Source: Yuukianura sp. NJ FZ-2021 (Eukaryota). Taken from it: a DNA stretch of 64,000 nucleotides. Of this stretch, positions 49,301-55,300 are shown in pieces. Within the stretch, counting starts at the first letter, position 1, and each line of letters begins with the position of its first letter. The notes under the pieces are model-generated. The model saw only the letters and a list, made by a program, of their open reading frames with translations, was not told where the DNA came from and searched no databases. The translations under genes were made by a program, and so were the position numbers. The DNA lies in contig CM102289.1 of NCBI GenBank assembly GCA_046563655.1, forward strand, positions 2,294,001 to 2,358,000. Direction: 5' to 3'.

Positions 49301-52300
49301 GCAGGTATTGGGCAAACTTTGAGCATCAAATCTAATTCGTTTAGTTTCAGTTAGAATAGCGTACTTGTATCTTATCAGTACATGTATCACAGATTCTCAA
49401 TTTGTTGGGCTTCGGTACAAGTTTCCCCCCATAGTTACGAAAATAAACAAAATATTTATAATTGAGGTGTCTACTTTTGGCTGCCACACCCTGTATTTCC
49501 ACCGGACCAAAAGTTAAAAAGTGGATATCCAGCAACACTGACTAAAGTTACTACCCGGATGGCACACAAGGATGGTAATTTTTAGTAGTAAAACTAGATT
49601 AAAGTCATGTTGAGCCTTTTCCGCCATACTAACCGCCGCCGACAGCCGGACGGCAGACATACAGATAATTTCAAACTATAAAGTTGGTTTTGCTATTTAA
49701 TACAACAACGTTCAGTTCAAAGATTTTTGAAAACAAAAAAATTATTAACTAGATGCGACATTAGGACCATTTTAAACAAAATTTTTGAAGCAAATGTGTT
49801 GTGACGTTTCTCCTGACAACTGACACAATTTCATTAAAATTAAGCCTGGCTCACACAATAATTGAGAATTCGTGAGAACCGGGCTTAAACTTGACATGAA
49901 AGCGGTTTTTTGCCGCTTTGAGTCGATTTGAAAATGCTTCAAAAACTTTGTTGAAAAAATGCCTTATGTCCACTCTAGTTAAAAGAAAAAAAATCGAAAT
50001 CGTCCTGACAACTCTATGGTGCAGTTAGGAATAGTAAGTAGGAACAGAATAGTTAGAAGTAGGAATTAGGAGTAATGGTGCTAAGGCAACATCTTTTTGT
50101 TACAGAGATGAAGAGAAACAATTGTCCGGATTTGAACCAACTTCCCTCAAGTATAGTACAGAGACGGAATCTGAAAATATTTTTCCAAATATTTTGGAGT
50201 TGGTCCGTCTTGTTCAAATAGCATACAAAAGTTTCGAAGACCCTCCAATAACTATCAAACTTTCCACCGAATGGGAAAGAATTCATACTGCAAGTTACGA
50301 TGACGGATTTCGCGCAGCCGCATTTCGTAGTCCACAAACTCGGCACCTTGTCATTGCTCTACCAGGAACAAAAACGGCAGACGGATTGAAGGCTTTCGTA
50401 AAGGATCTTGCCATTGACATTTATGGCGTAGGTCTGTCGAAAGAAGTTTCTGTACTGCACTCAGCCATTTTGTTTACTCAAGAAGTACTTCATCTCTTCG
50501 GAAAAAGCTGCATCTCTACTACTATTACTGGACATTCTCTTGGAGGATACCTGGCACAAATTTGTACACTGTACGCAGAGTACCCCAATTTACTTGAGGA
50601 TTCCAACCAGAAACAACTTCACAAGCGCATATCTTCATTACCCACATCAATTGCTAATGTCATAGGAATTTCTCCGTTTCACCTACACTGCGTCGCAATT
50701 GACCCTCCAGGGTGTGCGGAAATCTTTACAAAAATACTAAGCTACAACGATGTCAAGCGACATGACGAAGATGGACATGAAAGATGGAGAAGGAAATTGG
50801 AGTCTTTGGACATATGCGTGATACTGGCCGATTCAAATATCGTCAACACATCCAAATATCATCTTCAACATATCCAATTGTTGAGTATTGTCAAGAATTT
50901 AAATTCTAAATTGTTATCTTCACACGCTATACAAAAAATTATTGAAAGTTTGAATGAGGAAAGCCTCCAGATAGAAGAAGTGTACGAAACACGTTTCTTC
51001 CGTCAACACGTCCGTGGTGACAAGGAGATTTTTCTAAAGAACTGGTACGTTGGGCGTATGGATTCATGCAGAATCAATTTTTTAACAAAACAAGAGATTC
51101 ATTTCTTAGAAAAGTTCTTAGAAATTAATCGTTGTGTTCATCCGGATGCTATACAATACCATAGCAAATTTTTAGCAAAAAATGGTGACAAAATACGCCA
51201 ATTTTGTAATAAGTTGGAAAACCGTAGAATAACTTGTGACATCCTCAATAGAGTTTGGATCGAAGGAAAAACTTTGTCATTTAGGAATCCAGTGGAAACA
51301 AAAACAAACAAATCCACTCCAGTTTCTTTATTTGAAGTAGTCTCTGGCTTAAAAATTGTTTTTGCTGAGGATCCAACTATTTTAAAAGAGGCACTGCTGC
51401 AAGGTATATTCACAAACTTTGGAATTCAAGTCGTAGTCAACTCAATTTCTCAACAATATTTGCAAAAGATTCCAAAAATTAAGGAAGAAGTAGAAAGTCG
51501 GTTTGCCCAACCAGATCAAGTGTATTGTTTGCATGTTGTGGCTGGAAATATTCCTATTTCACTGTGTATGGGGTATATTGCTCATGGTTTACAAAAAATT
51601 GGTAATACCAAAGTTATGTTTTCCAATTCAACTACAGTGATTCGTTGGCAGGCGGCACTTAAACCAGAGAATTTTTTTTCAGAGTTGGACACAGAAGTTG
51701 TTGTTGTTGAGGTTGATTCAGAATTGGAAGGACTTGATACTTTAATTTCCGAAATGAGGGAAGATGCACAGACGTGCGGGAAGTTGTTGATACTTGTAAC
51801 TGAAACGTTATGTCCAGCTACATGCGTTTCGTCAGATAATTGTTACGAGTATGGGAACTCCCTTTCCAAATCTTTAGTCCAAGCGTTAACTTGGAGTGAC
51901 CTAAATGAAGAATCCAAAGATGTACTGTGGAACTATAAACTAAACATCTATGGTAGTGATGTCGAGGTGAAGAATATTTTTGGCGGTAAAATGGAACGTT
52001 TTGAAAAGTTTCAGAAAGAAGGAAAGATTTGGTTAGAATTGATTTCTTATGCTTATGGAGGGAAAGCGCTGAAAATTGTCCAAAACAAAAAGCCATTGCA
52101 ATGCTACATTTCAAGACAATTTTGGAATTTGCATTTGGATTTAAATTGTTTACAAAGTTCACCGCCAAATTTTCTTAAAGATCTAAATATTTTTGTTAGT
52201 TGTACTGATGACCAAGGTTCTGATGTTATAACTCTCATTTCTCCTTCCGATAAGTTCCGTTTAACACTCCTGCATAATGATGCAACAAAAGTTGAATTTT

Positions 52301-55300
52301 TGAATTCGTTGACTGCTGTTAATCATTCGGGTTCTTCCTCTCATTGGTTTCGTTTCGTTGACAAAAATTTTGTTTGGCAAGCGTCGGCAGTTACCTCTTG
52401 TTCAAGGTTGTTAAAATGTGGTGGAGAAATTGGCGAATCTGGCGTTTTCGACCTGGAAAGCGATTGCCTTGTTTTTGCAGATGAACCAGGAATGGGAAAA
52501 TCCGCATTATTGCAACAGTTGTGTTATGACTACAACCAAAATTGGCGTGCAATTTCCAAAGTATCCTACTGCTGGCCAGTACTTGTAAATTTGAATGACT
52601 ATGAAAAAGCGCTAAGAAACACGCAAGAGAATTGGGGTTCTGTTGATTCAATTAATAATTTCTTCCTTCGACATGTAATGAAATTTGAATCTGAGCTGGT
52701 TGGTCAATTATTCCAATACAACTTTAAAAGGCTTGAAATTGTATTTTTCTTCGACAGTTTTGATGAGTTGTCCATGATTGCGCAAAGAAACGTGGCAGAA
52801 ATGTTGAAGACATTAAGGTTTCAAGAATCTCCATCCTTTAAGTTACTAATAACAACTGGAGTTCATGCGTGCATTTCATTGGAGGAAACACTCATGACAT
52901 CTGCTTACAAGTGTATTCCTTTCAATCGATCCCAACAAACTGAGTTTCTTCTAAACCGTTGGAACTTGCATCTTCAAAATGACCATCGTTTTTCAGATTT
53001 TTGCTCACAGTGGGAGGAGCATAAAAATACATTGGTAACATTCGTAACCGCTGTTTTAGACAACATTGTAAAAGTTATAAGGACAGAAGATCCGTTCATA
53101 GGAAGTCCACTATCGCTAGTGTTTTTCGAGGAATTGCAGCGTAGTGGCTTTGCAGATTTTTGCAAAGATTTGACCTATGGTGTTGCAAAAGACTACAAGA
53201 ATTATTTGTTGCAGTTTGAAAGTAAATTGGCACTTTATGAAGAATTTGTTGATAAAAAAATTGACACTTACATTTTAGACAAAAAAGGAGAAAGACCTAC
53301 AGTATACTTTAGAAGAGAACATCCCTACTATCGTGATCCTTATGAAATTCATGCGGCAGCTGCAATGCTGTCTCTCAAAGAATCAACATTTCATAAAAAT
53401 TGCGAAATTGATGTCAAAGACCTGAATGACGCAGAAAAAGAAAAAGTTATTGCAACGAGAATGTGTGGAATTTCTTTCACAATGGACGGCTCGCGTAGTT
53501 ACAGGTTTTTTCATAAAGTTTTAGCTGAATACTTTGCAGCAAAATACTTAGTAGACGAGATGAAAGTCAATAAAGCTGCAGTAATTGACTTCTTAAAAGC
53601 GAACTACCGTACATGGAATTTTTTTGGTATAGGGTATTTTTTGGATAGTATTTTATTTAAGCAATTCTGTTCGATAAAGTGGCTTGACAAGTTACAGATA
53701 AAGCCTGTCGGAAACTTGAGGAAACATTTGGCCGCAAAAGATTTAGAATGCGTTGATAAATTGGGACGTACTTTATTGCACTACGCAGCAAGGTATGGGA
53801 TTTCTGAAGATGATATATTATGGATGATTAGGCAAAATCCTAAAAATGTAGAAATTGAAGATTCGCTTGGTGAGACATTTTCAGTTAATTTAAGGTTTGC
53901 TCAGACAACTAAAGCTTTATATCATTTGTTCCTCGATGCAAAAATATGAAATACAAAGGTTAAGGCCCCGTAACGTTTAAGTTGAATTGATTCGTTGATA
54001 TTATAACCTAACCTAATCTAAAATGATGAGTCCTAAACAGCAAAATATGTAATTTTCATGAACGTGAATGGGATCAGATTGCTAGGAGCTCTGGGCAAAC
54101 TAATCGTACATTAAGAACTATTAGAATATAAATGTCATTACGTTGGACCAGTTTAAATGCTATTTTAAAGCTTAATTAATTAAGTATAAGTAGCAAATTA
54201 ATTACCAAATATAAAATTAAATTTGGGAAAACAATAGTTCAGAACATTGAAATAAACCGACTAAACATTATGAGAGAAGGGGAGTTTATACTAGTAGTAA
54301 GTAGAATTGCTTAATCAATGGTGGTTGCGTGAAATCACTGCAATTCCGCTTTAAATAGTGTCGATGAATTCTGAGAAATAGTCGCACTCGAATTCTGATT
54401 TGAGTTTGGGTTGGTTCATAGCCATTGGTTTGCCACTACGGTAAATAATAACACTGTAACTTAAGTTGCCTTTTCAAGTATCTGATGCTATTATTACCAA
54501 AGCCAGTCTCACCTAATTTAGTTTACGCTGGCCCAGTATGGCCACACGGAATGAGGCGGTAGGTACAACAAATGGTGTTACAGGTTACCTCAACCGGTTC
54601 CATGTAATTTCGTCAAAAGTGAATTCGTAAACAACGCAGAGCTCGGCAAACTTAGATGAGTCTTTCTTTCATTCAAGTTAGGTTTAGGTTATGTTTCTAA
54701 TGCTAGGTTTTGCCGAGCTCTGCGTTGGTTACGAATTCACTTTTGACGAAATCACCTGCTACGACCTCAACCCGACAATGAGACGCTGAGCTGACCTGCT
54801 GAGGAGGACGCTTGAGCTTGAACTGAATCGAACAGAGAAACAAAGGAAGGAGAACGAGAAGGGACAGGACGAGCCGTTGGAAGACATCCAGAAAATTCAA
54901 TTCAATTGTTTGCATTAATCACACCGTAATCGTTATCGGGTGCACCAACTGGTGTATTATGTTGTTATAAAATTATGGTGTTATAAAATTATGATGCTGA
55001 GCGTCATGAAAAATACCAAGTACGTCAACAGTCGCCTTTCTAAAAGTTTTTACATTGGTTGGGAGTAGAATGCGCGATTTAAAATGTGTTTAAAATCATT
55101 TACAGGTCGAAGGTTAAGTTTTGGTTTCTGAAGAACTATCTAAGTCCAACAATTAAAGACGTCTTCCGCATATGGCCAAAAAGTACGGATTCGAGTACGA
55201 ATTGGTTCAGTATCATTGGCCAAGGTGGCTCAACGCCCAGAGAGAAAAACAACGAATTATTTGGGTAAAATTGACTTTCAGTTTTGCTTGCTCTTTTGAT

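Follow-up and report, generated by a model that had tools for sequence, protein, structure and literature searches.

The stretch of DNA analysed here, called the window throughout, comprises 64,000 nucleotides of Yuukianura sp. NJ FZ-2021 (assembly GCA_046563655.1, contig CM102289.1, positions 2,294,001 to 2,358,000, forward strand), and it carries a real, intact open reading frame (ORF) of about 3.9 kb that encodes, in an animal genome, a protein resembling the NOD-like receptors (NLRs) with a built-in lipase. Elsewhere, this design is known chiefly from bacteria that inhabit the cells of animals and amoebae. We give a roughly even chance to the reading that the ORF represents the main exon, probably also the final one, of a gene resident in the animal genome, whose product would be a STAND protein (signal transduction ATPase with numerous domains) in three parts, with a lipase switched by nucleoside triphosphates (NTPs). 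A resident gene is argued for because the ORF is flanked by animal exons on the same contig, has host-like codon usage and falls in a clade with eukaryote-like contigs. The immune or cell-death role and the activation of the lipase by oligomerisation that the original prediction had proposed would follow by analogy only.

The ORF had at first been placed from 50122, a position that does lie inside the real open frame, but the frame is longer and begins at 50053 (protein P0001; Table 1); detectable homology starts at about 50161–50185. Over 50053–53949 the other five frames contain 53–104 stops each, and the probability of 1298 codons without a stop is about 7e-33 at the window's stop-triplet frequency of 0.055. 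The lipase, Walker A, Walker B and winged-helix motifs quoted in the original prediction are all found in the translation of the frame, and homologue profiles and fold searches bear out its domain order, namely a class-3-lipase-like head, a long spacer, a NACHT module and ankyrin repeats. Lipase_3, NACHT and Ank_3 are all matched, but each score of P0001 lies below the Pfam gathering cut-off, and the domain calls rest on homologues and predicted folds. Two AlphaFold models were built from family alignments, one covering residues 40–760 (predicted local distance difference test, pLDDT, 71.0; predicted template modelling score, pTM, 0.65) and the other residues 741–1298 (pLDDT 80.7, pTM 0.67), and both the lipase fold and the NACHT fold were recovered in AlphaFold and Foldseek.

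The lipase model aligns with Rhizomucor lipase (4tgl) over 202 residues (VIA Z 16.1, root-mean-square deviation 2.9 Å) and reaches the same Z of 16.1 with the plant phospholipase A1 AtDSEL (7x0c_B), and Foldseek matches it to the feruloyl esterase 1uza_A (E 3.5e-5), with 21 matches at E ≤ 1e-3. The VIA entries above Z 13 for the head are lipases, feruloyl esterases and phospholipases A1, mostly of class 3. The GxSxG nucleophile elbow is GHSLG at residues 160–164, and the residues of a Ser-Asp-His set are intact: the columns of Ser162, Asp217 and His291 are conserved in 85% or more of the 37 other members of the family, and the three residues are invariant in an 11-sequence alignment (Asp or Glu at the position of Asp217). 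By their position in the predicted fold they form a putative catalytic triad. The context of Asp217 is IDPPG in P0001 and F[DE]SPG in the family consensus. The window protein keeps 27 of the 35 strongly conserved lipase columns, defined by the same 85% threshold in the same 37 members. Several aligned homologues score above the Lipase_3 cut-off of 22 bits, including P0008 (26.2), P0030 (24.9), P0007 (24.4) and the ORF on L023 (32.6).

For the NACHT module, the Pfam profile (PF05729) matches P0001 with E 1.7e-4 over profile positions 8–161 of 167, and its gathering cut-off is passed by 12 of 18 scanned homologues. Foldseek returned NLRP3 (8ri2, E 5e-6), NLRC4 and NOD2 for the NACHT model, with 42 matches at E ≤ 1e-3; among the 50 entries listed by VIA, ranks 1–34 are all animal NLRs (Z 8.1–10.9), and NLRP9, NLRC4, NLRP3 and NOD2 align over 320–350 residues at Z 9–11. 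Of the 29 columns that 85% or more of the family's 83 other NACHT domains conserve, P0001 retains 27, the two losses being G902S and R936G; Lys816 of Walker A (ADEPGMGKS), Asp904 and Glu905 of Walker B and the winged-helix His1154 are all kept, in conserved columns. No leucine-rich repeat (LRR) or death-fold Pfam family was matched on P0001 at E ≤ 1, and the protein is not a canonical animal NLR, in which NACHT is combined with LRR and CARD, PYD or BIR.

The lipase head and the NACHT module are separated by a long middle region, which is conserved across the family. Both matches occur together in 21 proteins, near-duplicates included, and the 20 in which the lipase match precedes the NACHT match have spacers of 465–692 residues. 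No Pfam family was matched in residues 336–799 of P0001, and Atlas leads for the region score at most 0.77. Within it, a predicted α/β subdomain weakly resembles AAA+ folds, aligning with DnaC (6qem_G) at Z 9.9 over model residues 421–573 (VIA). A degenerate second NACHT domain was also considered for the middle region and is ruled against by the hhalign probability of 0.05–0.08 with the family NACHT profile.

The tail of P0001 matches Ank_3 (E 0.016) and Ank_4 (E 0.11) in Pfam and designed ankyrin proteins in the PDB (E 0.16–0.21), its model contains helix pairs at local residues 501–555, and homologues carry ankyrin arrays above threshold at the same position. BLAST-detectable homology to the closest relative, P0002, stops at 53871, coinciding with a donor-like GTGAGA. 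Read-through past this site completes the second ankyrin-like repeat, and the stop at 53947 is for this reason probably the natural end of the protein; the donor-like sequence at 53870 is probably unused. With ten homologues as queries, tblastn detected no further ankyrin exon or frame-shifted remnant in 53872–55600 or upstream of 50161. Elsewhere in the window, past the calpain exons described below and two minus-strand ORFs, a separate ankyrin-repeat gene with its own start occupies 61925–63574 (+); it resembles the ankyrin arrays of bacterial homologues and lies outside the gene of the lipase-NACHT ORF. The two minus-strand ORFs before it are a seven-helix-receptor-like one (recognised by eye) and a GNAT acetyltransferase (by Pfam).

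A HMMER scan with residues 40–1239 against 1.84 billion representative proteins matched 189 proteins at E ≤ 1e-3, 44 at E ≤ 1e-10 and 2 at E ≤ 1e-30. The closest relatives are P0002 (full length, 32% identity) and P0003 (30%), each encoded by an unbroken ORF on a separate contig of a single metagenome. These two contigs, L030 and L031, look eukaryotic because their flanks are without long ORFs; compared with the window, these flanks give just chance-level matches of 25–52 nt. A metagenome scan with the alignment of the three-member clade found nothing beyond L030 and L031, and a word-based homologue search returned nothing in the range of 713–2272 residues. Both Lipase_3 and NACHT exceed the Pfam cut-offs in five of the 18 scanned homologues (P0004, P0005, P0007, P0008 and P0009), two of which have ankyrin arrays above threshold as well.

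Among 185,579 prokaryote genomes, 29 loci were found. The best of them is an ORF of 2442 residues in a Candidatus Aquirickettsiella metagenome-assembled genome (MAG; DALYCY010000014.1, L001:5746–13071), with Lipase_3 at 20.5 bits (under the cut-off of 22), NACHT at 34 bits and 12 ankyrin stretches, and its neighbours, dotD, DotC-like, ftsY and hemF-type genes, mark a true bacterial contig. The dotD and DotC-like (T4SS_TraI) genes belong to a Dot/Icm-type secretion system and lie at L001 419–1768 (−), about 4 kb from the lipase-NACHT-ankyrin gene. Six other prokaryote loci were scanned with Pfam; those of Cytophagales, Chlamydiota, Rickettsiales and Amoebophilaceae bear the lipase head of the family, as detected by tblastn, on NB-ARC NTPases, with Lipase_3 over its cut-off in two of the four and TPR tails in three of the four. 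The named NACHT relatives include proteins from the insects Anoplophora, Phaedon, Athalia and Exocentrus, from Wolbachia of Folsomia candida and from an Amoebophilaceae MAG; the named relatives of the lipase domain include stand-alone proteins of Mesorhabditis nematodes, and a scan of viral contigs gave one weak locus with the lipase part only. The lipase-NACHT-ankyrin architecture is common in intracellular bacteria and metagenomes and is not unique to the window. In the literature, where subscription journals were thinly covered, no functional study of Lipase_3-NACHT-ankyrin proteins was found, just fungal or unrelated papers; the order is abundant in bacteria and undescribed there as far as literature searches reach.

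The proteins of this type from intracellular bacteria (such as the Aquirickettsiella ORF) and from metagenomes (P0004, P0007, P0008, P0009 and P0010) have the same domain order as the window protein. They share with it the GHSLGG, [DE]SPG and H motifs of the lipase and the spacer of the length given above; their NACHT modules likewise contain GMGK[ST] and the winged-helix motif FxHxxxAEY and are followed at once by ankyrin repeats. However, the window protein is only 23–24% identical to the best named bacterial protein and stands on a separate long branch, and it has neither the ATG start nor the conserved leader at the N-terminus nor the 12 or more ankyrin stretches of the bacterial proteins, ending instead after two repeats. 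NACHT-ankyrin proteins of arthropods and phage WO have been described as a family common to arthropods and their endosymbionts, for which horizontal transfer was inferred (Bordenstein and Bordenstein 2016, PMC5062602); the word "lipase" has 0 occurrences in that paper, although its supplementary arthropod homologues may include lipase-bearing members. The insect relatives P0006 and P0011, the two scanned of four, have tandem NACHT domains and no Lipase_3 match, unlike the window protein.

Separate trees were calculated for the two domains. The lipase tree contains 43 of 54 domain matches, 11 near-duplicates or short fragments being left out, and groups the window with L030 and L031 (Shimodaira–Hasegawa-like approximate likelihood ratio test, SH-aLRT, 96), in a clade sister (83) to a group including Mesorhabditis proteins. 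The NACHT tree contains 62 of 86 rows, namely all labelled or lipase-bearing ones and the best-scoring others, and it groups the window with L030 (SH-aLRT 99); this pair falls neither in the beetle clade (100) nor in a clade of named bacteria. The eukaryote-like clade is recovered in both, but the backbone is too weak to give a direction of transfer. The family is deep, fast-evolving and shared between invertebrates and intracellular bacteria (Aquirickettsiella, Wolbachia, Amoebophilaceae and others), and because of this sharing it very likely crossed kingdoms at some time; the transfer would not be recent.

The ORF has, as predicted, no ATG of its own before the lipase, its first in-frame Met being residue 336, behind the lipase domain. 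The acceptor candidate named at 50105 is present in the sequence as a polypyrimidine-AG; it sits 25 codons before the conserved FP motif, and 50106 is the third base of a codon. The related contig L031 is likewise without an in-frame ATG and has a candidate acceptor (aatag/G, phase 2) 27 codons before FP, while L030 has its own ATG 22 codons before this motif. With the window and L031 alike in having no ATG and in where and in which phase the acceptor lies, the comparison makes it plausible that some members of the clade have a short 5′ exon with the ATG, and speaks against random truncation. Truncation of the 5′ end by capture, which the original prediction had offered as the other explanation, is unlikely as a recent event, given the host-like codon usage and the same 5′ layout in L031. 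A +1-frame ATG at window position 50108 and at L031 position 1620 opens a short ORF (37 and 57 codons, respectively) that overlaps the start of the lipase frame.

The nesting of the ORF in a calpain intron, as first described, holds on the downstream side but has a weaker upstream boundary. The downstream exons are certainly calpain and on the same strand: exon 55624–55896 matches calpain-8 (2nqa_A) at E 1.2e-7 and exon 56414–56875 matches Peptidase_C2 at E 1.6e-32, and a search with the calpain exon found only proteins that are 39–57% identical and spread over many animal phyla, which marks the host as a metazoan but does not by itself support an arthropod. The upstream exon 45818–46069, in contrast, has no Pfam or PDB match, and we take it to be the start of the calpain core solely by its FVDPEFP-type motif. 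This arrangement allows another reading of the missing start codon, in which the ORF is an alternative terminal exon of the calpain gene and the upstream exon is spliced to 50105, giving a chimera of a calpain N-terminus with lipase, NACHT and ankyrin parts. The ORF lies on the strand of the calpain exons and has an acceptor without an ATG, and a possible donor, GG/GTCAGC at 46044/46045, is of phase 2, as are the candidate calpain acceptors 55652 and 55700 and the acceptor of the ORF, so that the join would be in frame. We nevertheless regard such a chimera as improbable, since a phase match arises by chance in one case of three, the stronger donor, GCT/GTAAGG at 46069/46070, is of phase 0, the upstream exon is not proven to be calpain, and L030 has its own ATG, which indicates that the family needs no calpain leader.

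The fraction of G or C at third codon positions (GC3) of the ORF is 0.326, and the correlation of its relative synonymous codon usage (RSCU) with 11 pooled neighbouring ORFs is 0.81, compared with a leave-one-out range of 0.48–0.86 for the neighbours themselves. Because codon usage is fully host-like, the composition implies a probable long residence in the host genome. It also bears on the idea of an assembly artefact, in which symbiont DNA was misjoined into the animal contig. An uninterrupted long ORF with bacterial relatives would fit such a misjoin, yet the explanation is hardly credible: identity to a named bacterial protein is 23–24% at best, GC3 and codon usage are host-like, the flanks are AT-rich and non-coding and contain no bacterial genes, animal exons and a fragment of a UDP-glucose:glycoprotein glucosyltransferase (UGGT) gene surround the ORF, and a start codon and a bacterial-type N-terminus are both absent.

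Several observations weigh against a working resident gene. The Pfam bit scores of P0001 remain below the cut-offs (NACHT 21.9 versus 26.7, Lipase_3 17.4 versus 22 and Ank_3 16.1 versus 22.3); the frame offers no ATG ahead of residue 336, and a search of the window for an upstream exon identified none; and no close orthologue was found among the 1.84 billion representatives, the top identity being 32%. The sensor-1 position, which is Arg in at least 85% of the 83 other family NACHT domains and also in the closest relative P0002, is Gly936 here, in LLITTGVHA; we take this position to be the TTR/TSR motif that follows the third core strand. Gly936 could cripple nucleotide-dependent switching, and it would weaken the claim of an active NTPase while leaving common descent with the NACHT family untouched. 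The ankyrin repeats of the window protein are reduced to two, whereas bacterial relatives have at least 12 and P0002 has about 400 further residues. The pieces of the UGGT fragment match Glyco_transf_24 with E 1.9e-13 and 2.6e-9 at profile positions 47–85 and 82–107 of 268, and, judged from these matches, the fragment shows that dead gene pieces accumulate in the intron that holds the ORF. Finally, both trees have long branches (1.1–1.4 changes per site) and a weak backbone, and the origin of the gene and the direction of transfer are not settled by them.

The chief competitor of the resident-gene reading, rather unlikely but to be taken seriously, is a silent relic, that is, a gene acquired from an intracellular bacterium or another eukaryote that has taken on host composition, has ceased to be made as a protein or never was, and has not yet received a stop. 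The absence of an in-frame start codon, the loss of the sensor-1 Arg, the two repeats left with no ankyrin exon downstream, the change of 8 of 35 conserved lipase columns and the UGGT gene fragment in the same intron are all compatible with decay, and the closest named relative with the full architecture is bacterial. A relic is disfavoured because long residence without selection should have broken the frame, which remains open over 1298 codons, against 53–104 stops in the other frames, and has host-like codon usage; moreover, none of the three catalytic residues has changed, 27 of 29 core columns of the NACHT module are retained, and the same 5′ structure in L031 points to a gene model rather than random truncation.

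If the ORF belongs to a resident gene, a short exon further upstream, spliced to the phase-2 acceptor at 50105, would supply the start codon, and the NACHT module would act as a nucleotide-dependent switch. Self-association of NACHT modules would bring lipase heads together, and the clustered heads would hydrolyse membrane or signalling lipids, leading to cell death or a lipid signal. This mechanism is proposed because of its analogy to fungal NLRs with lipase heads, PLP-1 and BCVIC1. According to one report, BCVIC1 of Botrytis combines a serine esterase (PF05057) with NACHT and ankyrin, and PLP-1 is a patatin-NB-ARC-TPR protein whose phospholipase activity was reported to be essential for cell death (10.1101/2022.04.03.486892); sesB-like lipase heads on fungal NLRs are likewise described in another (PMC4986451). 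Like the window protein, fungal lipase-headed NLRs join a head with a lipase or esterase enzyme to a STAND NTPase and end in repeats. However, the fungal heads belong to other α/β-hydrolase families, whereas the best fold matches of the window head are class 3 lipases; neither PF05057 nor patatin is among the seven Pfam families matched on P0001 at E ≤ 1, a PGAP1-like family of the same broader group being a weak match at E 0.06. The fungal proteins are also without the 465-residue middle region of the window protein, and the NACHT of BCVIC1 begins about 45–185 residues past its head.

Animal NLRs (NLRP3, NLRC4, NOD2 and NLRP9) are the best structural match to the NACHT module of the window protein, and the P-loop, Walker B and winged-helix His are common to both; in contrast to them, the window protein has no LRR and no death-fold adaptor head, but an enzymatic head and Gly in place of the sensor-1 Arg. 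To our knowledge, the known animal NLRs signal via adaptor domains and not via enzymes. The class-3-lipase-like fold of plant EDS1 and PAD4 matches the window head at Z 10–12, below the true lipases at Z 16, and the match is confined to model residues 4–288, with no match to the EP domain in the model of residues 40–760. EDS1 is not fused to an NTPase. The bacterial antiphage EruA equivalog of NCBIfam gives 19.4 bits on P0001 over only 50 residues, against a cut-off of 1000. Arthropods and nematodes were described as apparently devoid of NLRs in one source (PMC4986451).

A STAND-regulated lipase might also work in lipid remodelling or signalling, without cell death or pathogen sensing. In structure, the head comes closest to ordinary lipases and to the DAD1-type phospholipases A1 of plants, the sister group in the lipase tree includes stand-alone Mesorhabditis lipase-domain proteins, and a tail of two repeats offers little sensing surface. 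We see only a slim chance for such a non-immune task, since the characterised NACHT fusions are tied to conflict or death pathways (PMC4986451, PMC5062602, 10.1101/2022.04.03.486892), the family is enriched in intracellular bacteria, and the very long branches fit fast evolution.

Table 1. Features of the lipase-NACHT-ankyrin ORF and its surroundings (positions in the window)
Feature	Position	Strand	Remarks
Whole open frame (protein P0001)	50053..53949	+	stop to stop, 1298 codons plus stop at 53947–53949
Candidate 3′ splice acceptor ttacag/A	50100..50105	+	polypyrimidine-AG; exon would start at 50106, phase 2
Class-3-lipase-like α/β-hydrolase domain	50185..51057	+	residues 45–335, family hidden Markov model (HMM) envelope
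Lipase motif PGT			G105, T106
Lipase motif GHSLGG	50536–50538 (Ser162)		putative nucleophile Ser162
Lipase motif DPPG	50701–50703 (Asp217)		Asp217
Lipase motif SSH	50923–50925 (His291)		His291
Conserved middle region	51058..52449	+	residues 336–799; spacer conserved across family
α/β subdomain within middle region	51430–51888	+	about residues 460–612; weak AAA+/P-loop-like fold match
NACHT module	52450..53652	+	residues 800–1200; nucleotide-binding domain (NBD), helical and winged-helix parts
Walker A GMGKS	52489–52503	+	Lys816
Walker B FFFDSFDE	52744–52767	+	
Gly936	52858–52860	+	
His1154	53512–53514	+	in 12-residue winged-helix motif
Two ankyrin-like repeats	53731..53946	+	protein terminus, about residues 1227–1298
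Donor-like GTGAGA	53870..53875	+	inside second repeat, phase 1
Candidate upstream calpain exon	45818..46069	+	acceptor and open frame
Downstream calpain exons	55624..56878	+	active-site Cys exon, then later Peptidase_C2 exon
UGGT fragment	55157–55470	+	two pieces, intron-like gap, in the calpain interval of the ORF

Repeats and other long ORFs were also observed in the window. A 58-nt direct repeat at 46987–47044 and 55461–55518 (+) brackets an 8.4-kb interval that holds the ORF; its copies are 90% identical with a perfect 35-nt core, two copies are present in the window against 0 expected by chance, and the second copy lies directly 3′ of the UGGT fragment. The repeat is possibly the end of a mobile element. 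GC-rich tandem repeats with units of about 22 and 46 nt at 46660–46965 form a GC peak of 0.45 just upstream of the first copy, and downstream of the ORF a 50-nt inverted repeat resembling a miniature inverted-repeat transposable element (MITE) lies at 54601–54758, with arms 94% complementary and a loop of 58 nt. At 28323–29957 (+), an uninterrupted ORF of 544 codons encodes a stonustoxin-type MACPF/CDC-like domain (MACPF_SNTX, E 1e-12), with DUF7656 below threshold (23.3 bits versus a cut-off of 27). Arrays of long ORFs resembling divergent receptor families occur at 2–4968 (−), 36915–39527 (−), 9–22 kb, 33–34 kb and 40–42 kb; one of their ORFs has a weak Lig_chan match (E 0.0018), and three others scanned have no Pfam match.

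Fungi are already known to combine a lipase head, a STAND NTPase and repeats, although their heads come from other hydrolase families. The novelty of the window lies in a divergent member that an animal genome encodes, in which the middle region is long and conserved, the repeat tail is minimal and the sensor-1 residue has changed. A broader picture, speculative and in our view unlikely as a whole, would be that invertebrates possess an adaptor-free NLR-like receptor in which a NACHT ring fires a class 3 lipase in the manner of fungal and bacterial STAND proteins, that the family has been traded with intracellular bacteria, whose versions with long ankyrin arrays would be secreted to mimic the host pathway or act as decoys of it, and that the middle region forms a regulatory module not seen before and peculiar to the family; mimics or decoys are suggested because Dot/Icm secretion genes are present in the genome that carries the Aquirickettsiella copy. 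The gene is a well-supported candidate, although its expression and its competence as an NTPase are in real doubt, and its main value is in drawing attention to the large and uncharacterised family of Lipase_3-NACHT-ankyrin proteins. If the gene is transcribed, it would link the innate immunity of animals with fungal and bacterial STAND systems that have enzymes as heads, and it would be a tangible example of hosts and intracellular bacteria having a death or defence module in common.

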